Under the pieces are notes generated by a model. That model saw only the letters and a program-made list of their open reading frames with translations. It did not search any database and was not told the origin of the DNA. From the IMG/VR virus record IMGVR_UViG_3300042090_002405, positions 17,288 to 81,287 of that record: 64,000 bases of DNA. One strand, 5' to 3'. The position numbers were made by a program, and so were the translations under genes. The number at the start of each line of letters is the position of its first letter. The first letter of the stretch is position 1. Below, piece by piece: positions 45,947 through 62,739 of the stretch. The DNA is from a virus.

Positions 45947-46492
45947 TCACCTTCTCCTTCCGCCGCCGCCGCCGCCCGAGAAGACAGCGCCCATCGCCAA
46001 AAACGCAGCGACACCCACGCCACCCAGAACGAGCGTGCTCTTCTTGAGAAACCACGGCGAGGGCTCCTCGATCGGTGCCGCTGGTGCCGCCTGTGCCGTC
46101 GCGACTGGCGCCGCAGAGGGCCCGTCCGCGGCCGTACCGCTGTCAGCCGGATGCGCCTTCGATTGCGTGTACTCGTGCTTTGAGCTGCGCTTCGCCGTTA
46201 CGATTCCGCCGCCGCAATTGCTCTGCCCATGCCCCGCCCACCACGATGGTCGCGGATGGCAACCTGCCGGGGCACCCGGGGATACAGCTTGCGCGGCCTT
46301 TGCCGTGGACGCGCCGTACTTTCCATCGGGCGTGAGCCCCGCGGCCGTCTGGAAGTTGCACACGAGCTGCACGTTCGCGAGGTCGCACGGATCTACCTGT
46401 GCGAGTGTCATGGCGAACGCTTGCGATGAGCCCGTGTCGTCGCCGATCCCGACGGCGCGGACCGCGCGCCCGTTGTACCGAAGAGAGAACAT
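45947..46492 (-). CDS. Peptidoglycan-binding, C-terminally anchored virion membrane protein
   Basis: FQTAAGLTPDGKYGAST (PGBD); C-terminal TM followed by RRR. Confidence 0.7.
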   Translation of the reverse strand: MFSLRYNGRAVRAVGIGDDTGSSQAFAMTLAQVDPCDLANVQLVCNFQTAAGLTPDGKYGASTAKAAQAVSPGAPAGCHPRPSWWAGHGQSNCGGGIVTAKRSSKHEYTQSKAHPADSGTAADGPSAAPVATAQAAPAAPIEEPSPWFLKKSTLVLGGVGVAAFLAMGAVFSGGGGGGRRR

Positions 46493-47361
46493 CAGCGCCA
46501 AGCCTTCGCAATAGTCGCAGGTAATGCGGGTGCCGCCGAGGGCGCGGCTCGATGTCCGTGCGATCTCGATCCGCCCTTCTTTCGGGCCATGTGAACGACA
46601 CCCGCAACGAGTGCAACTCCGGCCAGCCCGATCCCCACCTTGGCCGGCGTGCTGAGATTGCGGAACTTGTCGAGCGCCGACGAAGCGGACGGTGGCACCG
46701 GGGAGGGAGCCGCTGCTGCCGTCGTGGGAGCAGCCGGCGGCGCCGGTGTTGCCGCTGCCGATGCATCGGGCGGGACGGGCGAGTCGGACGCCGGCGCCGC
46801 GCCGCTGGGAAACTGCGTCCCGAAATCGCTCGGGTGTGCCTGCGTCGTTGCGACCAAGGCCTGGACGGTGTTCGGATCGAGGTTGCCGTCCGTGGGAAGG
46901 GTTCCCCCCGAGTTCGCGTTGTACCAGCCTTGAAAGCAGGAGACCGCCGCTTGCAGATTTGTCCCCGGATCTTGCCAGCTAGGACAAGTTGTCCCCGTCG
47001 CCGCGCCGATGAGGGTGTTCAGCGACGTCAGCGTAGCGACGACCCATGCTTGTTGGTCGCTCGTCAGCGCGGGCGCGTCGGCGAGAGAAAAGCCACGCAC
47101 GCATCCGCCGCCGTACCAAACCGGCTCTTCCCCGCCGCACCCCCGCCCGCCGTACTCCGCGGGCCCTCCGGACCACCTCGCCGGGTTTCTGGCCCAGCGC
47201 GGGATCGGTCCGTAGCAGTCGACGCACGACGGCTTCCGTACGGGAAGGACGTTGCGCGACCACCAACAGTCAGCCGCGCGGATCCCCTCGTCTGTAGGCC
47301 CCTGGATAGGATAGTCCCGCACGAAATCATATCGGCCGGACGCTTGCGCGGGGGTAGTCAC
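46492..47361 (-). CDS. PGBD-like, C-terminally anchored virion membrane protein
   Basis: FQGWYN...LPTDGNLDPNT; Pro/Ala linker; TM plus basic tail. Confidence 0.65.
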   Translation of the reverse strand: MTTPAQASGRYDFVRDYPIQGPTDEGIRAADCWWSRNVLPVRKPSCVDCYGPIPRWARNPARWSGGPAEYGGRGCGGEEPVWYGGGCVRGFSLADAPALTSDQQAWVVATLTSLNTLIGAATGTTCPSWQDPGTNLQAAVSCFQGWYNANSGGTLPTDGNLDPNTVQALVATTQAHPSDFGTQFPSGAAPASDSPVPPDASAAATPAPPAAPTTAAAAPSPVPPSASSALDKFRNLSTPAKVGIGLAGVALVAGVVHMARKKGGSRSHGHRAAPSAAPALPATIAKAWR

Positions 47362-47612
47362 GGGAACCTCACGGGCCAGCGCATCGCCGGCGGAGTCGGA
47401 AGAGGGGGGCCGCTGAGCGCGCCGCCGTACGTGGGGCTCTTCTGCATGTTGGCGAGCGCTCCCATCAGAAACGCTCCGAGGACACCTCCGACGAGCGCAC
47501 CGCTGATAGGGCTCTTGCCTTGCCGGGCGGCGTACTCGACTCCAGCGTAGGCGCCGAGGCCGGCAATCGCTGCCGTGCTAACACCGCCCCCGATAGCGCG
47601 TAACAAACTCAT
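47358..47612 (-). CDS. Small Gly-rich two-TM protein
   Basis: Glycine-zipper-like helices. Confidence 0.6.
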   Translation of the reverse strand: MSLLRAIGGGVSTAAIAGLGAYAGVEYAARQGKSPISGALVGGVLGAFLMGALANMQKSPTYGGALSGPPLPTPPAMRWPVRFP

Positions 47613-47620
47613 GGTGTCTC

Positions 47621-48586
47621 CTAGGGGATGGTCCTCGGGTTGATGCCGGCGAAGCCGACGAGATTGTCTTGAGGAAGGTTCTCGTCGAAGGCCATGGCCC
47701 CATAGATCGAGCCGTACTGGGCGAAGTCGCTATACGCGACGAGGAATTTGTCTTCTTCCGATAGCGCGGCGAACTGCTGAAGTTGAAGAGGTGTGGCGTT
47801 CAGAAACGAGGGGTTCGTCGTCGGATCGTTCTGCCTGACGCTGGCGAAAAAAACGACGTCGCACGGCACCGGAATAGGGATATCGAGCAACCGCTCGGAC
47901 TGATCTGTTCGCCCGCGATACCGGAGATCGTGGATGTTGCCGAGCGAAGCCGCCATCGGTACGCCCCAAGGCCTTCCCCCGTTGGGCGGCGTGTACGCGG
48001 TCGGCGCGAAGGGCGGACCCGCGAAGGTCTCGTAGAGGAGAGCCGGCGAAAGGGCGTCCTCGTAAATCAGCCCGTCGGTGTTTGCAGGATTGCGGGTGTC
48101 CCTGCGGGACCGATTGATCACCATAACGTGCCAGGAGATGTTGCCGCCGGGCGGGTGCCACAGCGGGTTTTTGATCTCCTTGCGAAACGTGACGGTACTC
48201 CCGACGGGCGGACCCGGAGGGGGCGGAGGAGGCAACTCACTGTTCGGCGTGAGGGGATCTGTCCCCGACGGGAGCCGCGCAACCATCTCGACGTACTGCC
48301 GAATTCCGACGAGCCGCACGCCGACCTCGGCGGATCCGAACGTCGCACGGGCGAGGATGAAGAGATACCGGCCCCCGAGCGCCGCCGTTGGGGTCGAAGG
48401 GACAACGAGCCCCGTGTACGCGTTCGTCTGGTACGGATCACTTCCGATGAAGCCAAATTCGGGGTTGGGCCCCGCCGTGATGAGCTCGTAACGACCACGC
48501 GCGAGCGGCTGACGGATCCCTTCGCCGACCCCGCCGGGCCAAGTGCGGAGTTCGAGGATCTTGTCGCTACGGGCGTGAGAGGACAT
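47621..48586 (-). CDS. Putative minor capsid/penton protein
   Basis: Beta-rich (LVGIRQYV, LDIPIPVPCDVVFFASVRQ), downstream of the capsid pair. Confidence 0.45.
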   Translation of the reverse strand: MSSHARSDKILELRTWPGGVGEGIRQPLARGRYELITAGPNPEFGFIGSDPYQTNAYTGLVVPSTPTAALGGRYLFILARATFGSAEVGVRLVGIRQYVEMVARLPSGTDPLTPNSELPPPPPPGPPVGSTVTFRKEIKNPLWHPPGGNISWHVMVINRSRRDTRNPANTDGLIYEDALSPALLYETFAGPPFAPTAYTPPNGGRPWGVPMAASLGNIHDLRYRGRTDQSERLLDIPIPVPCDVVFFASVRQNDPTTNPSFLNATPLQLQQFAALSEEDKFLVAYSDFAQYGSIYGAMAFDENLPQDNLVGFAGINPRTIP

Positions 48587-49797
48587 TACGCCGGCTTCTT
48601 TCCGCGTGCGAGCAGGCGGCACAGGTGCGTGGTCGACACACCGACCTGCTCGGCGATCACGCGCAGACTCGATCCTGCGTCACGCATTGCGTGCGCGCGA
48701 TCGAGCACCTCTGACGATACGGCCGATTGTCGCGTGCGCCGAACAACACGATCGAGAAGGTTGAAGCGAAGAAGGTTCACGGGGCGCGCGGCGGATTCGC
48801 GGGCTTCCTTCGAACGTCGTAGGGCCTCTTTTATCTTCAGACCCTTGGCGCGACTGCGCTCGGCGAGTGCTTCGGGCGACAGCTTCGCCTTAGCTGCAAG
48901 CGCGCCCTCTTTTGTCCTGCGCACGCGTTCGACACGTGCTTCCGGCGTCATGGCGGCCCATCCCTTTTTCGTAGCCGCGCTGTATTCCTCTGACGATTTT
49001 GTCAGTACCTTTTTCCCACCTGTGCTGCCGTATAGCTCTCTGCGGATGGCCCATGTCTTCTGAGCCGCCTCTCTACGCTGCTCCGTCGTCTGACTCTCAC
49101 GCATACGTTGTCTGGTTTCAGGGCCCAATGAGTCCAGCCGACTTTTTCGGGCCTTCTCGACTCTCTCCGTACGCGCTTCGGGCGTCATGCTTGACCATTG
49201 TTTGCGCACACGTTCGCTCTTCTGCTCAGGCGACATGCCGGACAATTGGTGCTTAACCCTGTTGCTCTTCTCGACAGAAGAGAACTGCGACCAAAACGCT
49301 TTTTGGCCCGCGGAGAAGGATGCGCCGGCCTCCTCTGATTTTAGCCATTTCAGATGACGAGACAGACGCTCGGGCGACCACGCATGAATGTTCTTCCGGA
49401 AGTATGCGACACGTTCTTCGGGAGTCATCGCCTGAATACGCCTCTTCGACATATCGCCGATTAGACGTTTGCTTTCTGCGTGGTGATGCCCGTTGCCCCC
49501 GCCTCCCGAGGAGAGATTGTACCCGTGCGGTGTGCGCGTTCGTCTCTGTTCAATCCATCGAGCTTCGGCGATGTCCACTCCCTCTTGAGTGGTTACGACG
49601 TCGAGTAACTCATGGACAAAGGCCGCCGCACCGTATTTGCGAATCGCGGCGCTCAGAAGACGAGCGCCGCCCTTGTTACGCTTGGCGGCGTTGACGTGTT
49701 CTTTCCAGCGACCTTCGACCGTATGCACAGTCTGTCCGACGTAGCGTTTTCCATTCACCGTATTGGTGTGGATATAGATATGGAATCTGGGCCTCAT
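48586..49797 (-). CDS. GIY-YIG homing endonuclease with NUMOD-like repeats and a C-terminal HTH
   Basis: HIYIHTNTVNGKRYVGQT..RWKEH..AIRKYG..E..GYNL; MTPEAR repeats; SLRVIAEQVGVSTTHL. Confidence 0.9.
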   Translation of the reverse strand: MRPRFHIYIHTNTVNGKRYVGQTVHTVEGRWKEHVNAAKRNKGGARLLSAAIRKYGAAAFVHELLDVVTTQEGVDIAEARWIEQRRTRTPHGYNLSSGGGGNGHHHAESKRLIGDMSKRRIQAMTPEERVAYFRKNIHAWSPERLSRHLKWLKSEEAGASFSAGQKAFWSQFSSVEKSNRVKHQLSGMSPEQKSERVRKQWSSMTPEARTERVEKARKSRLDSLGPETRQRMRESQTTEQRREAAQKTWAIRRELYGSTGGKKVLTKSSEEYSAATKKGWAAMTPEARVERVRRTKEGALAAKAKLSPEALAERSRAKGLKIKEALRRSKEARESAARPVNLLRFNLLDRVVRRTRQSAVSSEVLDRAHAMRDAGSSLRVIAEQVGVSTTHLCRLLARGKKPA

Positions 49798-50396
49798 TGC
49801 GCGATCATCAGAACTGAAAGATCTGGAGACTCAATCCCAAGTTTGCGCAAACGGCATCGACATTCCGCATCACTGAGATCGGAGACGCTCTTGTCCAACA
49901 ACTGTTGGCCCAAAAATGTGAGCGTTACATTGAACGGTACGCTCACCGGAGTTTGTGTGAGAATAGCGCTCACCTTAACATTAGATTGCTTCAATAGAGG
50001 CCAGCCATTCGGCCACGCCAATGCGATTACATCGAACAGATTACCCAAATCTGTAAAGTCATCGTTTATCGAATATTTAGGGCCGCCATATACATCCAAC
50101 TGAATCCCAACGCCAGTTTGACCCGATTGCTTCAACTGGTTGAAGTACAGCGATTGAAACGGCGACCCGGGAAACGAGTTCTGCTGAAACAGGTTGTACG
50201 ATACACGCTGAATCAGCGTGTCCTGCGTCAGGTTATTGTCGAACGATCCGACAATCGGTGGTGCGTTGACAACCGACGAGGAGAACTGGATCGGGACGTC
50301 GACCACGAACGGGACGATCGGAACGCCGACGACCAACCCGTAAGCTAGTTTAGGAGCCCACAAGGCGAGCTCACGAATATTTGGCTTCGGTTCCAT
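49794..50396 (-). CDS. Putative small single-jelly-roll major capsid protein
   Basis: 200 aa, all-beta pattern, WPLLKQSNVKVSA...VTLTFLG C-terminus; follows the larger capsid candidate. Confidence 0.55.
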   Translation of the reverse strand: MEPKPNIRELALWAPKLAYGLVVGVPIVPFVVDVPIQFSSSVVNAPPIVGSFDNNLTQDTLIQRVSYNLFQQNSFPGSPFQSLYFNQLKQSGQTGVGIQLDVYGGPKYSINDDFTDLGNLFDVIALAWPNGWPLLKQSNVKVSAILTQTPVSVPFNVTLTFLGQQLLDKSVSDLSDAECRCRLRKLGIESPDLSVLMIAQ

Positions 50397-50425
50397 CGTC
50401 AGGTTCTCCTCAAGCGCACTCTACC

Positions 50426-50468
50426 AAAATGAAAACGGGCGACGCAGCGTTTTCCGCCACGCCGCCCG
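50426..50468 (-). terminator. Intrinsic terminator after the large capsid candidate
   Basis: CGGGCGGCGTGGCG-GAAAA-CGCTGCGTCGCCCG then TTTTCATTTT. Confidence 0.75.
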
Positions 50469-50501
50469 GCTCAACTCCTGAACGTTCGGATCGGTTTTCG
50501 A

Positions 50502-51851
50502 TCAGCCGGCCGACTGAGGCGCCATGATCGTCGGCAGGTTGGTCTGGCAGTACGCCTTCCACCCGCCGGGCATCTCCCAGCCCTTCAGCTTGATCGCGAG
50601 CTTCAGCACACCGCCCTTGAAGACCTCGCGGCAGGTGTTGACGTCCTGCCGAACGAGACCGGGGACGGTATCGAGCGTTTGCTCGAGCATCTGGTTCTGA
50701 ATTCCGGCAGTGAGCGGGGACGTCGGCACCGAGTTGGAGCTAGAGGCCGAAATCCCCGTGTTGCACGTGAGGTTCACGTCCGCACTAATGTTCGTGCCGA
50801 GAGGCTCGTTTGTGATCGTGAGGGCCTCGAGCATGGATGCCTGGTGCACGGCGTCCTGCGCGACGAAGAGCATCCCGATGGGGATACCGCGCTCGAGGAA
50901 GCACGGGCTCTCCACGGGGCGATACATCTGCCCGCGGCACCCGTACCCCTGCCACCGGAGACCGCCCCAAGTGACCGGCGCGAGATCGTAGTCGCGGGTC
51001 GGGTGGAAGATGCCGACGTTCAGCACATTGGCAGGCGCCGTGGCGTTTCCGCTGTAGCCGACGCTGCCGACGCGGCGATGCGTGACCGGCAAGAAGATCG
51101 TGCCGGATCCCTTTGCGCGGTAGTTCGCGTTGACCTGCGCCACGTACTCGATCACGGGGACCTCGGACGTGCCGGACGCCATGGCGTCCGCGAACGAGCC
51201 GAAGTAGGAGACGTCCGCGGCGAGCTCGTTCAGCACGAGTTCCCTCTGCGACGTCTTCCATTGGAACTGGTAGGCGTTGATGAAGTTCCACCCCGCGCGC
51301 CACACTTCCGAGCCCCACGCGAGATCAGCCGGCGTGAGGACGGTCCCGGCAAACGTACCGACCGGGGGGATCCCCGTTCCGGTGTTGCCACCGAGGGCAC
51401 CGCCAATCTGATCATTGAGCGTGAAGACATCCGGCGAAGGGGGAGGCGTCGTCGTCGTGGCGGGTGCCGCGAAGGCGTTGCCGATCGTCGAGAAGCTCAT
51501 CGGCTCGCAGAACACGTGCACGCCTACGCCCTGCGTGAGGATGTCCGTCTGGAGAATGCCGTTGATCAGGAACGTGCTGTCGATGCTCTGGACGCCCGGG
51601 ACAGACGAAGAGCCCGACAACAGATTGACCGTGTCGCCGAAGGTCGCGGTTGCTTCCTCGATCGTGAGCGGCAAGGGGATCGTCCACACGACCTCCTCGA
51701 TCACGGGAATATTGCCGAAGGAGCAACGAAGGCACTTCTCCGCAGCGCCGAGAGTCCCGGGGGCTTCCCCGAGACCAAACGGCACGCGGCGCACCTTCTC
51801 GCGATCCTGACCCCACTTCGCGGACTTTTTACCGATAATGGAACGTGACAT
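50502..51851 (-). CDS. Putative large jelly-roll major capsid protein
   Basis: STFLINGILQTDILTQGVGVHV, YRPVESPCFLERGIPIGMLF, LKLAIKLKGWE; strongly GC3-biased codons and its own terminator. Confidence 0.55.
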   Translation of the reverse strand: MSRSIIGKKSAKWGQDREKVRRVPFGLGEAPGTLGAAEKCLRCSFGNIPVIEEVVWTIPLPLTIEEATATFGDTVNLLSGSSSVPGVQSIDSTFLINGILQTDILTQGVGVHVFCEPMSFSTIGNAFAAPATTTTPPPSPDVFTLNDQIGGALGGNTGTGIPPVGTFAGTVLTPADLAWGSEVWRAGWNFINAYQFQWKTSQRELVLNELAADVSYFGSFADAMASGTSEVPVIEYVAQVNANYRAKGSGTIFLPVTHRRVGSVGYSGNATAPANVLNVGIFHPTRDYDLAPVTWGGLRWQGYGCRGQMYRPVESPCFLERGIPIGMLFVAQDAVHQASMLEALTITNEPLGTNISADVNLTCNTGISASSSNSVPTSPLTAGIQNQMLEQTLDTVPGLVRQDVNTCREVFKGGVLKLAIKLKGWEMPGGWKAYCQTNLPTIMAPQSAG

Positions 51852-51953
51852 GACGATCTCTCTTTTCGTGTGCCCGCCGTTTCACAGGGCCGACGCAGGC
51901 GTTCTTTGTTGAACTTCTTTCGTTCTTCCGCTTCCGCTCGTTCGTCTAGTCTC

Positions 51954-54059
51954 TCAAGAGAGGACGAGAGAGTCCTTTTCCTCGTCGCCGATGAAGCCGA
52001 GGAAGCTGTTGTTTTCGCCGACGCAACCGCAGCCTTCACCGCCCGCGGAGTTCATGGGGACGGGGCCAGGGCCTGGTGTTGCGGGAGGGCCGGGTGAATA
52101 GGTCGGCGGCCCGACTGGATTTGCCGGAGGCGGGGCGGTCGGGAGTGCTCCGTCGCCTGCTGCCGGCGGTGCAGCGGAAGCATCGGCCGGCGGGGGCTCC
52201 CCTCCACCGCCACCATCAGCCGGCGCATCGCTAACGCCACCCTGGATGGGGGGTGCGGGAGGCGCAACCGGAGAAGCGGGGGACTCGTAGAGGTACGGGT
52301 AGTGCCCATACGGATGGGCAAGACACCACGCGTGGAGCTGCGCATCCGTGTACGTCGGGTACAGACCCTTCGCGCGCGCCATGCAGTGGTGATGGTGGTG
52401 CTTGTGGTGTGGCGCCGTACCGGGCGCACTCGGGATGGCGTAAGGAGTGTTGAATCCAGCGCGCGACCAACGGTTGCTCAAGTTCGCGAAGTGCGCGACC
52501 CCGCCGGGCCTGTACATCGGATGGGAGAACTGAAACCGCGACGCTCCGGGAGGGGCAGGACGGCGGACATAACCGAGTCCGGCTTCATGACGGAGGGCCT
52601 GAGCAGCAGACGGGTAATTCTCGTTGTCGCTCACCCCGGCTTGTCGCCGAAAAACCTGAACCGCATCGGGGTAGGGCGAATCACCACCGAGGGCTAGAGG
52701 GCCGACATCGCCAATCGGAGCGGACGAAAGGGCCCCGAAAGACTGTCCACTCGCGGACGTTGTGGCGGAATCGAGATTCAGCTTCGCGGCCACTTCCGAG
52801 GGATACAGACGCGCGATGACGCTTCCCTGCAAAGCAGAGGTATCTTTCGGCGCGAGCATCGGGACAACCACGTTCGTCCAAAGCGTCGTGAACGCCTTCA
52901 CCCCCGCGCCAAGAGCCACGGCTTCAAGAGAAGCCTTCAGGTAATGGTTCTTGACATGCCCCGATGCAATCGCGGGAACGACGATCGCACCAGCCAGCGC
53001 GAGAGCGCGGTGCAGATGCGGGGGCGATGCGACGTTGAGGGCGTTGGCCATGGTACCAGCGCCGTCGGACGTGAACTTGTTCGTGGGCTTCTCGTCTCCC
53101 GCGGGGTTATAGGTTGCAAGATACCGATCGAGCGCATCGGACAACGAGTAACCAATGCCGATCGACACGGCCGAGATGGCGAGTCTTCCGACTGACTTGA
53201 CCGCTCCGCCGATGCCGGCGCGTGCGTAGTGACGGCGCGTCGCACGAACGCGACGAGCGGGCGTCCGAACAGCGTGCACCCGGCGACGACGCGACCGCAC
53301 CCGACGGCTCGGGGCCTGCACCAAGATCTCACGTACGCGCGTGCGCGTCCGCGTACGAACCTTGTTCGCGCTCGCCCTACGGTGTCGGCGACGTGCGCGG
53401 ACCACCGAAGTAGCCGCATGCACCCGACGACGCCGACGCGCCATCACCCGACGCGGAGCAGCAGCTCGAACCCGCGCACGAACCCGACGCCGCCGACGCG
53501 CTACCGGAGCGGCGGCGCGCACCCTGCGTCGTGCTCGCGCCCGAACAACCGTGGACGCACGCACCTTGCGCGCCGCACGGGCTTTCCGGTGACGCTTGCG
53601 CGCACGCACGACCGGCGTAGCTGCGTGCACTCGACGACGACGGGTGGAGCGGACCTTCTTCGAGCTGCGAGCGCGATGCTTGACGACCATGTGATCCTCT
53701 TCTCGTGCGATGACGGCCTGAATTCCTCGGCCAAACAGGATGGTCCGGAAGGTTTTTAGGCCCCTTGGAGAGAACTGCCGGAGGCGAATGTGCTGATCGG
53801 TCGTGTGCACCTTGCCGTGGTGGTAGCCGTGAGCTTTCGCCCAGGCCTTTGCGGCGGAAGGTGTCCACTGTTGTCGGTCGAACAGGAGCGACTGAACGTC
53901 CGCGCGCGGATGTGACGCGGGGGCCGCACGGGTGACACGACGGCGGAACGCGCCGGCAGCGACCCGACGGGACGCAGCACGACTACGGCGTGCAGAGACG
54001 CCACGCTCTTCTTGCGTTTCCTCTTCATACCGAGCGAGCCGGTCGTCATAGAGACCCAT
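51954..54059 (-). CDS. Arg-rich DNA-condensing core-like protein with TM segments and a Pro-rich tail
   Basis: About 155 aa of RRV[RH]A repeats; N-terminal VQSLLFD..W...AKAWAKAHGY...IRLRQF.P domain. Confidence 0.7.
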   Translation of the reverse strand: MGLYDDRLARYEEETQEERGVSARRSRAASRRVAAGAFRRRVTRAAPASHPRADVQSLLFDRQQWTPSAAKAWAKAHGYHHGKVHTTDQHIRLRQFSPRGLKTFRTILFGRGIQAVIAREEDHMVVKHRARSSKKVRSTRRRRVHAATPVVRARKRHRKARAARKVRASTVVRARARRRVRAAAPVARRRRRVRARVRAAAPRRVMARRRRRVHAATSVVRARRRHRRASANKVRTRTRTRVREILVQAPSRRVRSRRRRVHAVRTPARRVRATRRHYARAGIGGAVKSVGRLAISAVSIGIGYSLSDALDRYLATYNPAGDEKPTNKFTSDGAGTMANALNVASPPHLHRALALAGAIVVPAIASGHVKNHYLKASLEAVALGAGVKAFTTLWTNVVVPMLAPKDTSALQGSVIARLYPSEVAAKLNLDSATTSASGQSFGALSSAPIGDVGPLALGGDSPYPDAVQVFRRQAGVSDNENYPSAAQALRHEAGLGYVRRPAPPGASRFQFSHPMYRPGGVAHFANLSNRWSRAGFNTPYAIPSAPGTAPHHKHHHHHCMARAKGLYPTYTDAQLHAWCLAHPYGHYPYLYESPASPVAPPAPPIQGGVSDAPADGGGGGEPPPADASAAPPAAGDGALPTAPPPANPVGPPTYSPGPPATPGPGPVPMNSAGGEGCGCVGENNSFLGFIGDEEKDSLVLS

Positions 54060-54329: not shown

Positions 54330-54992
54330 CTACCGGATTCCGGGATACCGCAGACCCGGCGCGCTCATCGGGCTACCTGACACGCCGACATCCTTTTCGC
54401 TCATCCCGACGAAGTCACCGACGCCTTTTTCTTTGGCGTCTTTGCCGGGCTCCAGCCACCACTCGCGAAGATGCTGCGCGGTCTGACCCACGGGGTGATT
54501 TGTAGTGCCGTCCGTGCGCACCCAGTTGTCGAGCTCGTCCTGGAAGGCACAGAACACATGCGTGGGAACGTCGGCCGGTTCCTTGTGACTGCTCCCAATA
54601 ATCATCGCGGGGATCCCGATACTCATGTATGCCGCCGCAAGTAGTACGCTGTACTCGTCACAATCAATGCCCTTTATGCAAAGGCCTTTTTCTTTGTCGA
54701 GACACAGAATTTGATCGGGCGTTGCGATGAACTCCCCCATGAGAGGGTCGGCGACGTAGAAAGTTTGATTCCTCGCCGCATCCAAGATCGCTGTCACCTT
54801 TTGACGACGTCCTCCCTTCGCGGCGCCGGCCTTGTCGATCACCTGTGTCGTCCATGCACGAAGCCGGGGGGACATCCGCGCCTTCCATGCGCGATCGGCC
54901 GTCTCTTGAAGCGAGATCTTCGCGCCTCGTGCGCCGGCAGGATGAGACCTCGCATCAGTCTGGATCCCCTCGAGAGGTTTCTCTTGAATCAC
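54330..54992 (-). CDS. Transglutaminase-fold cysteine protease
   Basis: IDCDEYSVLLAA...IGIP (Cys), THVF (His), WVRTDGT (Asp). Confidence 0.8.
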   Translation of the reverse strand: MIQEKPLEGIQTDARSHPAGARGAKISLQETADRAWKARMSPRLRAWTTQVIDKAGAAKGGRRQKVTAILDAARNQTFYVADPLMGEFIATPDQILCLDKEKGLCIKGIDCDEYSVLLAAAYMSIGIPAMIIGSSHKEPADVPTHVFCAFQDELDNWVRTDGTTNHPVGQTAQHLREWWLEPGKDAKEKGVGDFVGMSEKDVGVSGSPMSAPGLRYPGIR

Positions 54993-55681
54993 GGATGATT
55001 CCCTTTCGTGGGCGTGGGGGGTTGCAGTGATCCGTACATCGCTTGAAGGGCAAGACGCGCGGAGTAGAGCGCGCTCTCAAGCGCATCTTGAATCTCGGCC
55101 CGCATCCCCGCAAAGTGCTCGGGCGATCGAAGTGCGAGATCAGCGGATAGTGCTTGCGCGCCCTTGATTGCCCAATCGGCGACATCTTTCGCGTACTGCG
55201 CATGCCACCCCGCATCGGCGTTCTCTGAAGAAAAGGCGGGGGACGCGGCCGCGATGATCTCCGCCGCCGTACGCGGAGCACACGACAAGAACTCCACGCC
55301 GTCCCTCTCGTCGAGGTCGCGCACTTGTTCGGCCGCGTCGTCGAGCGCTCGAAAGTGCGAGAGGATGACAGGTGCCATTTCCCCGAACGGGCTCGGCGTC
55401 ACGCCGTCCGCGTAAGGCAAGCTCGCGAAGTACGCCGGGGGGTAGAGGTTGTCGTCAGCGAACGCCGGATCGAACCATTTCTCAGGGAGGAAGAGCTCTT
55501 CGCCGACGCGGAGGTCGCGAAAGGTCACGAAGCCGTTGCGGTGCGCGACAGTATCCTTGTGGCCGTTGGCCCGGGTCAGATCGAACGAGGCGCACTTGGG
55601 GCAGCCGGCGTGCTCCTCCATCGCCGCGATCGATGCCGGAGTGTCCCCATCTCGAACTACGTACGTCCTCCGCATCCGCAT
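54989..55681 (-). CDS. LysM-domain protein
   Basis: TYVVRDGDTPASIA...LTRAN...LRVGEELFLP. Confidence 0.75.
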   Translation of the reverse strand: MRMRRTYVVRDGDTPASIAAMEEHAGCPKCASFDLTRANGHKDTVAHRNGFVTFRDLRVGEELFLPEKWFDPAFADDNLYPPAYFASLPYADGVTPSPFGEMAPVILSHFRALDDAAEQVRDLDERDGVEFLSCAPRTAAEIIAAASPAFSSENADAGWHAQYAKDVADWAIKGAQALSADLALRSPEHFAGMRAEIQDALESALYSARLALQAMYGSLQPPTPTKGNHP

Positions 55682-55693
55682 TCTTCGGGAAGA

Positions 55694-55809
55694 CTACGCG
55701 CACGCATGGCCCCCGTCTACGTCGTGGGCGCCATCGAGGCCGGCGTCGCCGATGTTGAAGTTGAAGGATGCTCGGTGTAATGGCGCGGGTGATTGATCGG
55801 ATCGCTCAT
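55694..55809 (-). pseudogene. DUF3310-family remnant with internal deletions
   Basis: MSDPINHPRHYTEHPS, then FNFNIGDAGL in another frame. Confidence 0.6.
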
Positions 55810-56031
55810 CTTTTTCCCCCGTCTACGCCGTACCGAAAAGCTGCACGATCGACCCTGTCTCACCGAGCGGCTGTTTGCACCGCGCGCACCGCGTTCCGTC
55901 TGGCGGGGCTGAGTACCCGAGCATCTCGTCCCCTGCTGCAAACAGGCGTGGTGCACGCGGAGACGACGTGCGCGCTTGGCGTCCTTTTGACCGACGCGGA
56001 ATCTGTTTTCGGAGGAGCCCACGACGGACGA

Positions 56032-56229
56032 TTAGAGTGGCGCTACTTCGCGCGTTGGCGAGTACACCACCGGCCGTCCGTCCCCGTGCGCAAGCCGGAT
56101 CCCCTCCCCATCGATCGCCATCCTCACCAAAGGGGTCTTCAGGAGCTTGTCGAGCGTCTTCGCTACTGCTGCTGCGTCTCGATCGTCCCGTGCCTCGATA
56201 ATGACATGCATCAAAATCTTGTACTTCAC
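56032..56229 (-). CDS. Hypothetical protein
   Basis: GTGA overlap; MKYKILMHVIIEARDD. Confidence 0.6.
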   Translation of the reverse strand: MKYKILMHVIIEARDDRDAAAVAKTLDKLLKTPLVRMAIDGEGIRLAHGDGRPVVYSPTREVAPL

Positions 56230-57848
56230 CGGGGGCCCCCGGGCATCGGCATCGGCGGAGCGCCCCATGTGCGCGGGCTTTGCGGCGCGATCGGCTCCGG
56301 CATGTGTTCCGGCGCGGGCGGGGGTGGCAAAGAGTCTACAGGCACCGCCACAAATCCCGGCGGTGGCGTGTAGCCGGGGGTCACCTCGACGTAGCCCGGC
56401 GGGAGCGTTCGCTGCGGCCCGCGCCGCGCCTCGACGCGGTTCTGCAGCGCTTCTCGCTGCTCCGAAAACCATTTGAGGACGTTGCCCATGTTGGCCGTCA
56501 CGGTTTCGAACGCGCGCACAGACCCGTTCTCGCGGTCCATGACGATGGGCCACCCGTTACCAACGTCCACGACCTTAACGGGATTGCTGTCGTCCCCGTC
56601 GTCGCCGACGTTGTAGCGGCGTCGTGCGCCATCGTCCTCAGGCGGGGGGCGAAAGCGGTCCGCGATCCCCATCGCTGTATCGATCACCGAGGCGGCCTCG
56701 CGGAACTCCTCGACGGCTGACTTCTGCCGCATGGGGGGCCCTGGGGGCGGACCTCCGGACGGGCCGCCGTATGCGGCGGTGCGGTACGCACCGGGACCTG
56801 GCGGTGGCGGAGCAGCGGGAGCGCCGAGGGCCTGAAAAAGACGATCCGCCGGAACGAAACCGAACCCCGGAACGAAAAACATTCCGGGCGGCGCTTGGAT
56901 CGGCGGCATGCCCGGCAATGCTCCGGGCGGTCCCGCGTGCGGCGCGGGGGGCGGCGATGGAGCGGCGGGTTGCTGCATCCGCTGCATCGTTTGCATCATC
57001 CACGACATCATCGCTATCGGATCGGCGGACGATGGGGGCGGGGCTGGCGCAGCCGAAGGAGCAACCGGCTGCTGCTGTAGCTGCTGCATCTGACGATACA
57101 TGTCGAACGTCTGCTGCATCATCGCGATCGGATCCACAGATGGCGGGGCCGAGGAGGATGGTGCGGGTGACGGCGGTGGAGCACCTGGAGCCCCCCCGCG
57201 TGCCGCGTTTTGCATGTCGAGGAACATCCCGAACATGCGCTGCATGAGGGTCACGGGATCGCCCATTCCTCCGTTGGGCGGCGGTTGCATCGGCTGCTGC
57301 ATCATCGTTGGTCCCGTCGTCGGTTGTCCTTGGTCGCGCGTGTCCGTCAGGACGATCCGCCCCTTGCCGCGCTTCTGCTTATCGCTCGAGTCTACGAATT
57401 CGACCTCGTATCCGGCCTCTTCGTAGCGCCCGTGGTGCGTCATCAGCACGGTGTAGAGCTCTGCGCCCGATTTCGGACGGCTGCGGATCACCCACTGCAC
57501 CGGCGAGCCCGTCAAACGCTTGACCTTGATGTCGATCGTGTTGGCCGGCCAGAACTTCAGAAGCCCATCGTACTTCTCGAGAAGGTCTTCGATGTTGAAG
57601 GGCGCTCTCGCCTGGCCGGACCGCTTCTTGTTGACGAGATCTTCCATACGGCGGTTGTCGCGCACGCTCTCCGCGTCGACGGCGCCTAATTCTTTGATCT
57701 TGGACTCGTCGGCGACGAGAGCGCCTGGCTCTTCGCCTTCTGCGGACTCCTCGGGCACCGCGCCGATCTCGGCGACGATATCTGCCTCGTCTTGCTGCGC
57801 GGGGGTGTTCGAGGGCGGAGCTGCGCCGCCGCTGTTTCGACGTCCCAT
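56226..57848 (-). CDS. Pro/Gln/Met-rich low-complexity protein
   Basis: Three DP[VI]xxM[QM] helices separated by Pro linkers; RBS AGGAAAG. Confidence 0.75.
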   Translation of the reverse strand: MGRRNSGGAAPPSNTPAQQDEADIVAEIGAVPEESAEGEEPGALVADESKIKELGAVDAESVRDNRRMEDLVNKKRSGQARAPFNIEDLLEKYDGLLKFWPANTIDIKVKRLTGSPVQWVIRSRPKSGAELYTVLMTHHGRYEEAGYEVEFVDSSDKQKRGKGRIVLTDTRDQGQPTTGPTMMQQPMQPPPNGGMGDPVTLMQRMFGMFLDMQNAARGGAPGAPPPSPAPSSSAPPSVDPIAMMQQTFDMYRQMQQLQQQPVAPSAAPAPPPSSADPIAMMSWMMQTMQRMQQPAAPSPPPAPHAGPPGALPGMPPIQAPPGMFFVPGFGFVPADRLFQALGAPAAPPPPGPGAYRTAAYGGPSGGPPPGPPMRQKSAVEEFREAASVIDTAMGIADRFRPPPEDDGARRRYNVGDDGDDSNPVKVVDVGNGWPIVMDRENGSVRAFETVTANMGNVLKWFSEQREALQNRVEARRGPQRTLPPGYVEVTPGYTPPPGFVAVPVDSLPPPPAPEHMPEPIAPQSPRTWGAPPMPMPGGPR

Positions 57849-57879
57849 CTTCTTTCCTCGTTTCCTTCCTTCTGCCTGA

Positions 57880-58344
57880 TCAGGATGGGGCTACGGTGCC
57901 GTTCGTCGCCGGAGCGGCAGCGACGGACGGAGCATCGGAGGGAGTCTCGGGCTCCTCCGGCTCTCCGTCCTCTTCGCCCTTCGTCTCGTCGATCTCGAGC
58001 TCGTCTGCGAAAATGTCGGCGGGCATCGCCTCCTCTACGTAGCGGACAGCCCTCATCGGGATGATGCTGCGGATCCCCATGGAGAAGTCGGGCGCGAGGC
58101 AGTACACCCGGATCTCCTCGGCATCGCGGTCCAAAAACATGCGGAGGACCTTGTGGCCCGAGATGAACGGATGCGTGTGGCCCACCACCCACATGACGGG
58201 CTCGTCTTTCTTGCCCGGTTCCGACGGGAAAACCGCATCTGACACGGCGCGCATGATCATCGGGTAACCGGGCTCGATGAGATCGGGCGGCTCGGGCTGG
58301 GGAATTGCTGCCGTCGCCGGTGCGTGGGGTTGCTGCATGGCCAT
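57880..58344 (-). CDS. Hypothetical protein with an acidic tail
   Basis: RBS AGGAG before ATG 58344. Confidence 0.65.
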   Translation of the reverse strand: MAMQQPHAPATAAIPQPEPPDLIEPGYPMIMRAVSDAVFPSEPGKKDEPVMWVVGHTHPFISGHKVLRMFLDRDAEEIRVYCLAPDFSMGIRSIIPMRAVRYVEEAMPADIFADELEIDETKGEEDGEPEEPETPSDAPSVAAAPATNGTVAPS

Positions 58345-58387
58345 GGATACGAACTCCTGAAAGTTGGTTTGGCGGACGGGCTCTCCG

Positions 58388-59023
58388 TCAGTCGAGTAGT
58401 CCCTCTTCCGCGAAAGAGAAAAACGATCGTTTATCTTCACTTCCCCCGACGATCAAATGATCAAGCAAGATCACATTGACCGCCTCGAACGCTTTTAGAA
58501 AGGCGTCCGTCGTTTCCTTGTCGGCTTCACTTGGTTCGGCTTCGACACCTGAAGGATGCACGTGCATGAGGATCACAGCGTGCGCACCGTCGATGAGTGC
58601 TGCTTGTAGCGTAGGGACCATCGGGGCCATGGTTGCCGTCGCCTCCCCTCGGCCTGTTTCCGCCACAGACTTCATTCGCAGATGTAGATCGAGTGTGATG
58701 AGTCCGAAGACCTCATTTACCTCGTCGCCGATCGCATCCTCGATGAGCTCGAAGGCCTTCTCTGGAGTGTTCAGCGGTCCAATCTTGTCAGCGAGCGCGT
58801 TGCACGCCGCGAATCGCGCCGGGTCCTTATGTACAACGAGAAACGGCCGGCACTTCGAGTCGGGGCCCGCCGAAAGCACCACTGGCTCAACGTCGTCCGG
58901 CCGGTGCGGCGCGACCGTTTCGGCCACCCGGCGCGCCTGAGCGGGCTCATGACACCCGCACTCTGCACCAATGCGACGTCGCTTCTCGCCGACCGCGACG
59001 AGGTTGTAGGACTTCCGTTTCAT
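58388..59023 (-). CDS. radC: RadC-like JAB/MPN domain protein
   Basis: E.F.LITLD...AVILMHVHPSGVEAEPSEADKETT...LLDHLIVG..FFSFAEEG. Confidence 0.9.
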   Translation of the reverse strand: MKRKSYNLVAVGEKRRRIGAECGCHEPAQARRVAETVAPHRPDDVEPVVLSAGPDSKCRPFLVVHKDPARFAACNALADKIGPLNTPEKAFELIEDAIGDEVNEVFGLITLDLHLRMKSVAETGRGEATATMAPMVPTLQAALIDGAHAVILMHVHPSGVEAEPSEADKETTDAFLKAFEAVNVILLDHLIVGGSEDKRSFFSFAEEGLLD

Positions 59024-59442
59024 GCGATAGAGCCAGTCGGAGCGGCGTGGTCGCGATGGACGTGGTTGATGATCTGCTGCGAGGGTTGCTGGGCTTCCCC
59101 AAGGGACACCGCCGCATCGGCGCTGCCGAACGCGACGAAGTTGCCCGCGCTCTCGGTCTGCACGACGAACTCCTCCAAGGGCACGTCTGTAACGATGAGC
59201 CGCACGTCCTTGTCATCCAGGATCGGGCGAAAGCGCACGCCGCCATCGAGCACAATATTTTGGATCTGCACAGGCAACACCACGGACCCCACGACGATGT
59301 CGGCGCTCACATCTTTGCCGACCGCGTCGACGAGGACAAACTTCGTCGTGTTCCGCGTCTCGTCGGGCCGGACGATGGAGGAGAGGACACGCTTGATCAC
59401 GATGCGGCCCAAGATCTGGGAACGACGGGGGATGAATTTCAC
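59020..59442 (-). CDS. GroES/Cpn10-like co-chaperonin
   Basis: MKFIPRRSQILGR...SSIVRPD...VDAVGKDV..IVVGSVVL...ILDDKDV. Confidence 0.55.
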   Translation of the reverse strand: MKFIPRRSQILGRIVIKRVLSSIVRPDETRNTTKFVLVDAVGKDVSADIVVGSVVLPVQIQNIVLDGGVRFRPILDDKDVRLIVTDVPLEEFVVQTESAGNFVAFGSADAAVSLGEAQQPSQQIINHVHRDHAAPTGSIA

Positions 59443-60062
59443 GGAGCTCTCCTTGTCTTCGGCTTCTGCCCGGCCTTCTTCTTGGTCTTCTTCGTGGTCT
59501 TCTGCTTCTTGGTCTTCTTTTTCTTGGGCTCTTCGAAGTCCGCCATGAACGCCCTGAGCGCCCTCGTCTTTGACGCCGTCGCTTCGGTGAGCAGCGACAC
59601 GGGGCCGGCTTCGAGTGTGGCCACGAGGGACAATGCTGTCGAGGTCGTGGCCCCCCCTTGCGAGGCCTTCCGAAGCTCCTCGAGCTCCGCTTGACACGCC
59701 ATGAAATCGGCGATGACTTCCGAAAAATGCTCCCGCGACGGGGCGTAGTACGGGCCCTCCGCCAGCCGCTTAGCATCGAGAGGTGCAAACTGCCGCGCCG
59801 CCGTAAGGATCACAAGAGCACTCATGCGCATCTCCCGATCGCGGCAAGCTGACACGCACGCTACTTTTTCGTCCGCCTTGCCGGGGCAGGTCTCCACGTG
59901 CCGGCATTTCTCGAGAATCGAAGCGGCCTCTTGCACAGCGATCTGCCAAGCGACCTTCGACCGCCAAAGCTGGCGGCGCACGCCGTCCCAGTGCCGTACG
60001 AAGACAGATACCTTCTCGTCGCCGGGCGTGGCCAGCCCCATCATTCTGTCGTTGTTCATCAT
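59439..60062 (-). CDS. Hypothetical protein with a Lys-rich tail
   Basis: Cys cluster; KKKKTKK C-terminus. Confidence 0.65.
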   Translation of the reverse strand: MMNNDRMMGLATPGDEKVSVFVRHWDGVRRQLWRSKVAWQIAVQEAASILEKCRHVETCPGKADEKVACVSACRDREMRMSALVILTAARQFAPLDAKRLAEGPYYAPSREHFSEVIADFMACQAELEELRKASQGGATTSTALSLVATLEAGPVSLLTEATASKTRALRAFMADFEEPKKKKTKKQKTTKKTKKKAGQKPKTRRAP

Positions 60063-60071
60063 CCCCGTTCC

Positions 60072-60311
60072 TCAGATCGTCTTTCCGTTGGGCTCCTTGA
60101 TCCTTAGGTAGCCCTCGCTCGTCTGGTGCCGATCCGCTGCCTGAAGCAAGATCGACCGCATCCATACGCTGATCTTCACGCCGCATTGCTGCGCGCGCTG
60201 ATCTACGTTCCGATATTGCTCCGGCGTCATCTTCAGCGTGACGACCTTAGTTTTCGCGGAGACAGCGGTGTGTGCCATCAGGAGGGAGGCCAATCGGATG
60301 GCCGTCGGCAT
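60072..60311 (-). CDS. RHH regulator
   Basis: KVVTLKMTPEQYRNVDQRAQQCGVKISVWMRSILL. Confidence 0.75.
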   Translation of the reverse strand: MPTAIRLASLLMAHTAVSAKTKVVTLKMTPEQYRNVDQRAQQCGVKISVWMRSILLQAADRHQTSEGYLRIKEPNGKTI

Positions 60312-60386
60312 ACTGCTCTCTGGTTTCGCATCTCGTCAAGACGGATAGTTGATGAGGCGCCAAAAAAAAAGCGCTACTCTTCTCTC

Positions 60387-60605
60387 GTGACTGGGCACAT
60401 TCGTCGAGGAGATCGCTTCACGGTGGGCTTCGGGCAAGCCATGATCACGGCCCCGCTTCTAGCTACGGGTGCCGCCGCTGGTGAACCGTCGCCGTGGGCT
60501 ATGGCGCTGGCGACGACGGCGTTCGGCGTGGCGACTGGATGGGTGCTCGACGAGGTGTCGCACCGGATGCGCGGCGGCAAAGGTCGAAGAAGCCGAGGAC
60601 GATGA
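60387..60605 (+). CDS. Small membrane protein with the GF motif
   Basis: MTGHIRRGDRFTVGFGQ...TM...basic tail. Confidence 0.55.
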   Translation: MTGHIRRGDRFTVGFGQAMITAPLLATGAAAGEPSPWAMALATTAFGVATGWVLDEVSHRMRGGKGRRSRGR

Positions 60606-61051
60606 CCATGGAACATGTGCGACTTGGAAATCGACGCGTGGCAGGGTTCGATGTCGGCGTGGGGGGCCTCTTCGACATCTTCGGCGGAGGAAGTGGGACG
60701 AGTCCCAATCCGGCCTATCAAGCTACTGCCACGATCACTGGGCAAAAAGTAGATCCGAACGCGCCCCCGGACGCCCCCGCCGGCCCGACAGTCCAGGATG
60801 CTTGCGCCAACATCCCGACTTGGGCCCAAGCCATCGCCGGCTGTTCAAACGCCAACGTCAAACCCGCGCCGGGTCAAAGTGTGGCGACAGCGCCTGCATC
60901 GCCGTTGACATTGTTCTTCGGGGGCGGCGTGGATGCAAACGGCAACCCGATCCAGACCCCGCTCCAATGGCTGGAAGCCCACAAGACAGCGATTGCGATC
61001 GGCGGCGCCGTCTTCGCTGGAATCGTCGTCTACGGGGCCATACGGCGATGA
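60602..61051 (+). CDS. C-terminally anchored virion membrane protein
   Basis: VRLGNRRVAGFDVGVGG...TM+RR. Confidence 0.65.
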   Translation: MTMEHVRLGNRRVAGFDVGVGGLFDIFGGGSGTSPNPAYQATATITGQKVDPNAPPDAPAGPTVQDACANIPTWAQAIAGCSNANVKPAPGQSVATAPASPLTLFFGGGVDANGNPIQTPLQWLEAHKTAIAIGGAVFAGIVVYGAIRR

Positions 61052-61428
61052 CTCTCCAGTGGGGTGGACGTCGCGTGATGGGCTTCGGAATCGGCGAAGA
61101 TTCTGTTGCACCTACGTCCACCGCGGAAACGTCGACGGATACGACGGCCGGGGAACGTACCGGTACGTTCACGCGAACGCACGACGCTGAGACGCCGTTG
61201 ACGGAGCAACAGCGCACCAACATCGTCGACACATGGAGCGCCGCGGCAGGCTACAAAAAGATCGTCCTTCCCGATGGGACTCCCGGGTTTCAGGGACCGG
61301 ACGGAAACCTCCTTCGCGCAAATGGTCTGCCCTACGTTGCCGAAACGCACTTCCCGATCGGGGTCGTCGCAGTTGTAACCATGGTTCTGACTGTCGGGCT
61401 TCTTTACGCAATCACGCCGCGAAGATAA
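61048..61428 (+). CDS. C-terminally anchored virion membrane protein
   Basis: MTLQWGGRRVMGFGIGED...TM+RR. Confidence 0.65.
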   Translation: MTLQWGGRRVMGFGIGEDSVAPTSTAETSTDTTAGERTGTFTRTHDAETPLTEQQRTNIVDTWSAAAGYKKIVLPDGTPGFQGPDGNLLRANGLPYVAETHFPIGVVAVVTMVLTVGLLYAITPRR

Positions 61429-61438
61429 GTCTCTCGTC

Positions 61439-61873
61439 ATGAATACGGTCACGTCCATCGCTCGACTCCTGGTGCGCCCATCTGCCCGAACGATGGGGCA
61501 CTCGGTCGCCGCATTGTCCGTAAAGCAGACACTGCCATCTCTCATCACGACTATAGGGCACGCCTGTACGGTGGCCTGGCTAACGACGGGGGCTTACTGG
61601 CTAGCGTTCGCCGGCCTCGCATGTGACATGCTCGATGGGGCGGTTGCGCGACACCTTGACGTCGTATCCGAGTTCGGTGCGCTCTATGACTGGACGGTAG
61701 ACGTCACGATGGCGGCGATAATTTGCCTCGTTGCGCTGCACGCACCATGGCTCTTGATCGCTTTGGTTCCGATCGCTGTCTGGTGTAAGCGACGAGGTCT
61801 TCGTTTTTCGGGGCGGGCCGCGTTGACGTTGCTTGCGGTAGGTCTAGGGTGGAGGGGCGGGGTGCCGTGGTAA
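61439..61873 (+). CDS. CDP-alcohol phosphatidyltransferase
   Basis: Complete signature DMLDGAVAR-x5-SEFGALYDWTVD within a multi-TM protein. Confidence 0.85.
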   Translation: MNTVTSIARLLVRPSARTMGHSVAALSVKQTLPSLITTIGHACTVAWLTTGAYWLAFAGLACDMLDGAVARHLDVVSEFGALYDWTVDVTMAAIICLVALHAPWLLIALVPIAVWCKRRGLRFSGRAALTLLAVGLGWRGGVPW

Positions 61874-62739
61874 TCCGTCGAGGCGACAAGATCGTACGAG
61901 GGTTCGCCCTCGGCGCCGACGACTCCGTCGACGCTCTCGTCGCGAGCAAGCTGTCGGAGCTCGGTTACGGTTCCGTGTCCGACTTTCAGAAGGCAAAGGG
62001 ACTAACTGTCGACGGCGTTGCCGGGCACGACACCCTGACAGCGATGGGACTCGGGTACCTCTTCGATCTCTCTTCGAGGGGGATGCTTTCTTCGGGGCAA
62101 ACCCAGCTCGAAACGAAAAACACACCGCTTACCCCCGAGCAAGCTGCGCAGGCACTCAGCGAGGGCTACCAGTCCATCACCGGCTCTGTACCGTCCCCGG
62201 ACGTTCTGTCGTTGCTACTCGCGCAGTCCGGGCACGAAACAGCCAACTGGCAAAAGCTCCCCAACTACGCCTTCGGGGGCGTAAAAGCGACATCCGGAAC
62301 GCCCTACGTCCAGGCCTTCGTTACCCCCGAGGGGGATCCGCCGAAACATTACGTGCTGGCTTTCGCGGCGTACCCCACGGCGGCGGCGGGGGCAAAGGCG
62401 TACATCCGAACACTGAAGAACCGATCGGCATGGTGGGACGGGCTTCAGAGCGGCGTCCCGCAGACCTTCGTCGACGCTTTGGTGAGCATCCCCGGAGCGC
62501 TCTACTTTACCGGCAATGCCGGGGACTACCTCGCGAGCATGCAAACCCGCGTGCAGCAATTCGCCGATCTCGCAAAAGAGTACGCAAGGCCACTCGCGCG
62601 GCCCGCTCAGGCGGCCGCCGCGGTCGTTGCGCCGTACATCGCGCCGATCGTGCAAAACCCAAAACGTGCACTTGCGGTCGCGGCGGGGGTCGTGGCGGTC
62701 GCTACCGCGGCGGCGTGGATCGCGACTCGTCGCCGGTAG
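61867..62739 (+). CDS. Membrane-anchored PGBD + GH73/FlgJ-like muramidase
   Basis: FQKAKGLTVDGVAGHDT; AQSGHETANW..YAFGGVK..FAAYPT..YFT; C-terminal TM+RRR. Confidence 0.8.
   Translation: MVIRRGDKIVRGFALGADDSVDALVASKLSELGYGSVSDFQKAKGLTVDGVAGHDTLTAMGLGYLFDLSSRGMLSSGQTQLETKNTPLTPEQAAQALSEGYQSITGSVPSPDVLSLLLAQSGHETANWQKLPNYAFGGVKATSGTPYVQAFVTPEGDPPKHYVLAFAAYPTAAAGAKAYIRTLKNRSAWWDGLQSGVPQTFVDALVSIPGALYFTGNAGDYLASMQTRVQQFADLAKEYARPLARPAQAAAAVVAPYIAPIVQNPKRALAVAAGVVAVATAAAWIATRRR

Follow-up and report, generated by a model that had tools for sequence, protein, structure and literature searches.

Seven genes in a 64,000-nucleotide stretch of viral DNA (the window) encode the same short peptide, in most cases at their very N-terminus and ahead of otherwise different proteins. 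What is this peptide, which we call the tag, and what could it do for the virus? The window comprises bases 17288-81287 of the 81,287-bp IMG/VR record IMGVR_UViG_3300042090_002405, for which CheckV gives a completeness of 98%; its G+C content (GC) is 62%. A sequence-only reading of the window had described the motif on C-terminally anchored membrane proteins and, in weak form, in a large capsid candidate, and had interpreted it as a shared capsid-binding hairpin or a protease recognition site. All eight peptides quoted in that reading are present in the genes to which they had been assigned; seven are strong and form one block, and the weak one lies in the capsid candidate. Judged by its sequence and distribution, the tag is a modular N-terminal peptide that operates at the protein level, is tied to tail anchors and is specific to this virus family.

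The seven strong instances align without gaps over a 16-residue block, h-[S/R/Q]-x-G-[G/D/N]-[R/K]-x-[V/A/T]-x-G-F-x-[I/L/V]-[G/A]-x-x (h, hydrophobic; x, any residue). From a Glu at position -2 the layout runs through a short first strand (h-S-aromatic), the turn G-G and the second strand (R-x-V) to the core G-F-G. After G-F there follow G/A, L and G, and then a linker rich in Ala, Pro, Ser and Thr, with Asp and Glu. In total the peptide spans about 16-18 residues and is N-terminal, modular and particular to this family. Its position had been described as near the N-termini of the carrier proteins (m1 to m7 in Table 1). Six of the seven instances do start 2-5 residues past a plausible start codon, but the tag is rather the N-terminus itself (residues 2-7) in all carrier families except that of m2, where it is internal and begins at residue 81. 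The starts are well defined, because in three carriers the ATG overlaps the stop codon of the upstream gene as ATGA or TGATG (the latter where m1 follows m2). A fourth carrier, m6, starts with a GTG at 61867 and shares 7 nt with the end of the preceding gene.

Simple regular expressions, written post hoc, gave 7 matches in comparison with 2.6 ± 1.6 in dinucleotide shuffles, a modest excess of about 2.7-fold. A profile that was derived exclusively from relatives, leaving out this genome, gave 6 matches of at least 8 bits in this genome versus 0.62 in shuffles, and 3 matches of at least 10 bits versus 0.15. The strongest enrichment test is the scan of the IMG/VR collection (2.9 million contigs) with an exact degenerate DNA pattern, GGN GGN MGN NNN GTN NNN GGN TTY GSN HTN GG. 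This pattern has 30 matches. Of these, 14 are spread over 11 contigs of this virus family; each is in frame and 1-5 residues past a Met. The other 16 are found in internal Gly-rich stretches or out of frame. Within IMG/VR, the tag is thus near-exclusive to this family.

Across five whole genomes and further loci we identified 45 non-redundant matches of at least 10 bits, or 44 without one spurious match. The m2 orthologue set accounts for 15 of them, and nearly all others are located 0-7 codons past the start. Position 1 is I, V or L in 41 of the 44, position 5 is G in 37 and position 8 is V, A or T in 42, while G at position 10 and F at position 11, which belong to the core, are each kept in 41. 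Orthologues of the m6 hydrolase begin M-I-R-x-G-G-R-x-V-R-G-F-A-L-G, and the internal copy is kept in 120 m2 homologues. For m3, 203 homologues of about 60 residues were found in metagenomes; the 110 that were aligned (at most 80 residues) have the consensus M-x-E-x-I-x-x-G-G-x-P-V-V-G-F-G-Q, with the residues of G-F-G present in 109, 99 and 109 of the 110. The sequence-only reading had presupposed both enrichment over shuffled sequence and conservation among homologues, and both were found. Selection acts on the protein, because the conserved residues use all synonymous codons (for G10: GGC 18, GGG 10, GGA 8, GGT 5) and pairs with the same residue mostly differ in codon (3183 differ, 2457 agree). 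A DNA- or RNA-level element was rejected on the same grounds.

The number of carriers ranges from one to seven per genome, with this genome having the most, and relatives bear the tag on further, different proteins. Together with the occurrence of tandem double tags, this is how a portable module behaves. Double tags were seen in P0011 and P0013 and in the genome G001 (20655-21623, minus strand). One such sequence is M-I-S-F-G-G-Q-S-V-R-L-G-G-R-P-V-C-G-F-S-L-G. Another runs V-S-F-G-G-R-P-V-L-G-L-G and then I-Y-Y-G-G-R-R-V. Such cases show that half of the hairpin is able to duplicate. Three m6 orthologues are without the tag, and two of these (P0015 and P0018) are also without the C-terminal anchor. 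The tag-less orthologues P0015, P0018 and P0009 begin directly at the peptidoglycan (PG)-binding domain.

A hydrophobic C-terminal helix followed by two or more Arg or Lys residues is present in five of the seven carriers and in about one of 100 other candidate open reading frames (ORFs), a comparison made on a rough gene set (Fisher p about 1e-6). The description of the carriers as C-terminally anchored is thereby supported for most of them, but not for m7, which has no membrane anchor. The sole untagged candidate ORF with a C-terminal hydrophobic helix and basic residues is located at 24966-25823 of the window (minus strand). That the carriers hold different cargo was confirmed: in an all-against-all comparison with the tag masked, the seven proteins share only a 23-residue PG-binding core (m1-m6) and one weak low-complexity match. 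The tag as a remnant of paralogy was rejected, since beyond it only this core is common. PG_binding_1 is found in m1 and m6 and weakly in m2, and a glucosaminidase-like domain weakly in m6 (for m6, PF01471 with E 3.4e-6 and PF01832 with E 0.038). No recognisable cargo domain was found in m3, m4, m5 and m7. Proteins of the m3 type are 60-72 residues long and consist, beyond the tag and a short linker, of a conserved helix W...A-T-S-V-V-G-A-A-T-G-W and a basic tail.

Two side observations concern these genes. The counterparts of m1 in the genomes G002 (73192-74208) and G003 (33547-34593) contain three or four tandem PG-binding repeats and lie downstream of the m2 gene. The region ahead of m3 is a divergent intergenic region at the head of the tagged operon; before the GTG start of m3 (window about 60340-60386, plus strand) it shows G-G-C-G-C-C, a run of nine A and G-C-G-C, and no obvious ribosome-binding site.

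The weak eighth instance lies in the N-terminal arm of the capsid candidate. Relatives of this candidate were found on IMG/VR contigs of 4-125 kb: 29 at 64-78% identity (clade A, to which this virus belongs) and seven further ones at 41-46%, which form a sister clade (clade B). In a library of 1.84 billion proteins the candidate matches 190 clusters at 50% identity, from which a deep alignment (A4) of 72 sequences was made. The tag and the arm have a core [R/K]-x-x-h-G-hydrophobic-G in common, and within the wider family the 72 sequences of the alignment retain the arm core [R/K]-x-h-G-[L/F/M]-G-x-x-P.

The likeness is most evident in clade B. There, tail-anchored ORFs downstream of the capsid genes begin M-N-V-F-D-R-N-L-[V/I]-G-[F/L]-G-Q, and the arm reads R-x-I-G-L-G-Q-x-P. 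The consensus of this shortened tag is M-x-V-F-D-x-x-L-V-G-F-G-Q, in which the G-G pair is absent. We picked G-[LF]-G sites only by nearness to a start codon and a hydrophobic C-terminus, giving 22 picked sites and 154 others. The picked sites resemble the arm more (mean BLOSUM score 14.6 vs 9.1, p = 8e-5), and a Q follows directly after G-[LF]-G in 12 of the 22 vs 13 of the 154. The sister clade thus has an older, shorter form of the tag that tracks the capsid arm. In the clade B loci (L092-L098, at about 11.2-14.5 kb), G-F-G-Q recurs in some tagged proteins about 45 residues ahead of the C-terminus.

The internal copy in m2 differs from the others in what precedes it. Proteins of the m2 family have, in this order, a 57-residue N-domain (M-T-P-A-Q-A...C...C-V-D-C-K-G-P-I-P-M-W-A), a linker of variable length, a conserved G-x-x-G-E and the tag. 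In L024, the clade A relative that diverges most, what lies upstream is non-homologous and a Met stands directly before the tag. AlphaFold2 (12-sequence alignment) places the tag of m2 in a hairpin, with strands 81-83 and 86-88 about the G-G turn, at a predicted local distance difference test score (pLDDT) of 35-50; the beta-hairpin is thus a prediction of low confidence. The modelled hairpin has no intramolecular partner. The helical domain that comes next is modelled with confidence and has weak fold hits to PG-binding propeptides. The N-domain (window 47191-47361, minus strand, residues 1-57) has near-invariant C32, C46 and C49 and a Q-G-P-T-D string in the 120 homologues. It has no family match and its model is poor; a role as a metal-binding cap or as a partner of the tag is conceivable.

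Table 1. Positions in the window of the tagged genes, the capsid candidate and two further genes.
Feature	Coordinates	Strand	Description
m1	45947..46492	-	181 residues; tag 46436-46483 (degenerate, A-V replacing G-F); PG-binding core; C-terminal transmembrane (TM) helix ending RRR
m2	46492..47361	-	289 residues; Cys-containing 57-residue N-domain, variable linker, internal tag 47074-47121, helical PG-binding-like domain, TM helix, basic tail
m3	60387..60605	+	72 residues; minimal form: tag 60399-60446, short linker, S-P-W, membrane helix, basic tail
m4	60602..61051	+	149 residues; tag 60617-60664; C-terminal TM helix ending RR; start ATG overlaps m3 stop
m5	61048..61428	+	126 residues; tag 61054-61101; C-terminal TM helix ending RR; start ATG overlaps m4 stop
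m6	61867..62739	+	290 residues; tag 61873-61920; PG_binding_1; weakly glucosaminidase-like domain; C-terminal TM helix ending RRR
m7	29919..31592	-	557 residues, Ala/Gln/Gly-rich; tag 31533-31580; no C-terminal anchor
Capsid candidate	50502..51851	-	448 residues; most conserved gene, highest third-position GC
N-terminal arm of capsid candidate	51759..51797	-	K-V-R-R-V-P-F-G-L-G-E-A-P
Transglutaminase-like protein, candidate maturation protease	54330..54992	-	weak Pfam PF01841, E 0.0023, under curated cut-off
CDP-alcohol phosphatidyltransferase gene	61439..61873	+	between m5 and m6; Pfam PF01066, E 1.8e-10

The explanation that we favour, and hold tentatively, is that the tag is a modular docking peptide by which tail-anchored proteins are attached to the capsid; the transglutaminase-like protease might trim it afterwards. 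The tag would fold upon binding and dock the N-terminus of its protein onto the capsid shell or an assembly intermediate, at a site or partner that may be the same as for the capsid protein's own N-terminal arm, while the C-terminus of the carrier would remain in the membrane. Docking would select the carriers into the particle and tie the membrane to the shell, the carriers being PG-binding proteins, a glucosaminidase-like hydrolase, a minimal tether of 60 residues and others. With docking at one end and membrane anchoring at the other, tagged proteins would bridge membrane and shell and so enter the particle. A gene for the transglutaminase-like (papain-type) candidate protease is conserved ahead of the capsid gene in 24 of the 29 loci of clade A and in all seven of clade B, and is a core gene of the capsid module in both clades. 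This makes cleavage feasible and a later trimming of the tag possible. Of the earlier interpretation as a capsid-binding hairpin or protease site, what stands is a modular protein-level peptide with a hairpin predicted at low confidence and a likeness to the capsid arm that is clear in clade B and weak in clade A.

Several observations weigh against this explanation. The assignment of the capsid protein is itself presumptive: the candidate had no match in Pfam, PHROGs, PDB sequences or GenBank phages, and AlphaFold2 modelled it (21 close homologues) with a pLDDT of only 32. A search with protein-language features leans weakly (0.81) to tailed-phage capsid families and not to double jelly-rolls; if this lean is right, an internal membrane becomes less likely. 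Within clade A, hhalign sets the tag profile exactly onto the capsid arm, but with P = 0.15. In the register F11=F24 the mean BLOSUM score between tag and arm is 4.5 vs a background of 2.9, with a Mann-Whitney p of 0.015 that is based on non-independent sequences, and in the register G10=G25 the similarity is not above background. The likeness in this clade may be called suggestive; it is not significant. The co-variation of tag and arm is a lead and not a proof, because only two clades are available. Among the carriers, m7 lacks the anchor, and the internal position in the m2 family implies that a free N-terminus is not required. Finally, the capsid binding and the virion location of the carriers are what we infer, and the operon at 60387-62739, in which small membrane proteins are combined with a peptidoglycan hydrolase, could equally serve lysis, with the tag joining the membrane proteins to one another.

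The last point leads to the alternative that survives best, although we consider it unlikely: the tag may be a hetero-oligomerisation module in the host or viral membrane. The hairpins would pair by beta-strand augmentation into a mixed complex for lysis or genome delivery, independently of the capsid; in the lysis version, the holin-like 60-residue protein would gate the membrane-tethered PG hydrolases. The genes m3-m6 form one coupled operon, in which small membrane proteins with a basic C-terminal end are joined by a protein that is PG-binding and glucosaminidase-like. In its size, its single helix and its charged tail, the m3 type is like a typical holin. Two or three tagged genes can also stand in a row in relatives, and tandem double tags occur. 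However, neither PHROGs nor Pfam gave a match to a holin or spanin family, the tagged genes m2 and m1 are located directly downstream of capsid-module genes, and m7 has 557 residues and no anchor. The resemblance to the N-arm of the capsid candidate is left unexplained. Known holin and spanin families were rejected on the basis that m3, m4, m5 and a protein of 84 residues had no PHROG or Pfam match to lysis membrane proteins, a statement that covers known families only.

Less likely still is that the motif serves a maturation protease as a recognition and cleavage site and does nothing more. The N-arm of the capsid candidate and the tagged proteins would then all be substrates, with the cut in or just behind the Gly-rich core, and no targeting would be involved. 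The maturation proteases of adenovirus, African swine fever virus and poxvirus use Gly-Gly or Gly-X sites, the papain-type core gene adjoins the capsid module in both clades, and the capsid arm has the same core as the tag. In m2, where the motif follows a flexible linker and G-x-x-G-E, cleavage would expose the motif or release the N-domain. But 16-18 conserved residues are far beyond the usual need of a protease site, and with the motif at residues 2-7 in most carriers, a cut in the G-G turn removes almost nothing. Furthermore, the variant of the sister clade does without the G-G pair, and the Pfam hit of the protease candidate is under threshold.

We regard it as improbable that the tag is a non-classical signal for export, membrane insertion or chaperone recognition, which would direct insertion of the helix after translation or move PG-binding domains across the cytoplasmic membrane. 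The tag and the tail anchor are strongly linked, and three carriers with PG-binding domains, which need the periplasm to act, have no signal peptide. The N-terminus of the endolysin of mycobacteriophage Ms6 is reportedly bound by an export chaperone. On the other hand, the tag has no hydrophobic core (a 12-residue window with a Kyte-Doolittle value of at least 2.0 occurs within the first 45 residues in 3 of 44 instances), twin arginines are present in 7 of 45 instances, and we know of no export or insertion signal of this kind. Such a signal would explain neither the likeness to the capsid arm nor the anchor-less m7. Known signals were rejected individually: a Tat signal (twin-arginine, hydrophobic core, A-x-A) by the scarcity of RR and of strongly hydrophobic windows just given, a Sec signal by the absence of a hydrophobic core in the tag region, and a class III type IV prepilin signal (G, then F/M-T-L-I-E and about 20 hydrophobic residues) by the absence of both an E at +5 and a hydrophobic stretch. 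A functionless chance resemblance or fading paralogue remnant is hardly credible: the simple expressions exceed shuffles only 2.7-fold and Gly-rich strings are common in GC-rich DNA, but conservation across the family, the N-terminal position, synonymous codon turnover, unrelated cargo and the near-exclusive occurrence in this family all speak against it.

The docking explanation may be compared with known systems. Encapsulin cargo-loading peptides and microcompartment encapsulation peptides are short and terminal, have a small hydrophobic Gly-rich core and a flexible linker, and dock on the inner surface of the shell. The tag resembles them as a terminal Gly-rich peptide joined to unrelated cargo via a flexible linker. 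In contrast to encapsulin peptides, which are usually C-terminal, and to microcompartment peptides, which are helical, the tag is N-terminal, and the cargo of these non-viral systems consists of soluble enzymes. In phage T4, the capsid targeting sequence (CTS) is a short N-terminal peptide that is the sole conserved part of diverse internal proteins and directs them into the prohead (PMC3012670). Likewise, the peptide at residues 2-7 onward is here the only common part of the carriers, apart from the PG-binding core. The T4 prohead protease removes the CTS and also processes the N-terminus of the capsid protein, which parallels the likeness of tag and arm. The differences are that T4 cargo is soluble and is packed into the DNA-filled head of a tailed phage, whereas the carriers here are mostly tail-anchored, and that the tag is known from sequence alone and is likened to the CTS by description.

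In P3 of PM2 and GP18 of NO16, small minor capsid proteins of internal-membrane phages (Vinavirales), the N-terminal region is ordered within pockets on the inside of the capsomers, and a TM helix is predicted at the C-terminus (PMC13552765). The m3 type with its 60-72 residues has the same arrangement of N-terminal peptide, linker and C-terminal helix. In this virus, however, the peptide is a portable 16-residue module found on many unrelated proteins, enzymes included, and the capsid fold and the membrane are presumptive. A tblastn search with m3 and m2 against 50,697 GenBank phage records gave no match, so that no homology to tethers of the PM2/NO16 type was seen. N-terminal tags also fasten exchangeable proteins to the particle in the adenovirus fibre tail, in PRD1 P5/P31 and in NO16 GP13, where a beta-strand stalk built by residues 3-20 reaches into the penton (PMC13552765). 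Those tags belong to external fibres at the vertices, whereas the tag described here has a different sequence and is found on membrane-anchored proteins.

Few genes of the virus are recognisable; apart from the two further genes of Table 1, they are a D5-type primase-helicase, an SNF2 helicase, an integrase, a glycosyltransferase and a GIY-YIG endonuclease. The last (window 48586-49797, minus strand, Pfam E 3.6e-8) lies between the conserved capsid-module genes 49794..50396 and 47621..48622. The counterparts of these two genes are spaced by about 20 nt in most relatives, and a few others have insertions of 750-1200 nt at this spot, so that the GIY-YIG gene looks like a mobile homing-endonuclease insertion. 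A host search in 185,579 genomes returned only a 5.8-kb contig of a Binatia metagenome-assembled genome and a spurious 15-residue match, and no relative was found among GenBank phages. For the protein of 540 residues encoded upstream, the searches returned nothing. The locus search gave zero relatives with m6 alone, only distant hydrolase domains in other viruses with the m6 alignment, and zero loci with two distant capsid homologues as queries. The virus family is undescribed and has no described member.

Terminal address peptides are already known; new here are the sequence, the virus family, the tail-anchored carriers and the likeness to the capsid N-arm. A bolder form of the docking explanation, which we think rather unlikely, is that these undescribed and widespread viruses of 55-125 kb mimic the N-arm of their capsid protein as a programmable address system: any protein bearing the tag at one terminus and a membrane helix at the opposite one would be inserted into the capsid lattice and brought into the particle together with the membrane around it. 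For PRD1-type phages, which have an internal membrane, the mechanism that sorts phage-encoded membrane proteins to the virion patch is not established (PMC6356626). If true, the address system would explain the choice of membrane proteins by internal-membrane viruses and yield a portable tag with which membrane proteins could be loaded into capsids. A transferable tag that resembles the capsid arm would make the selection of virion membrane proteins directly testable. The tag belongs to a virus family that has hundreds of homologues in metagenomes and a capsid candidate lacking a Pfam or PDB match. Even as a signal for a lysis complex or a protease, it would be a new and sharply defined motif with over 200 natural variants.

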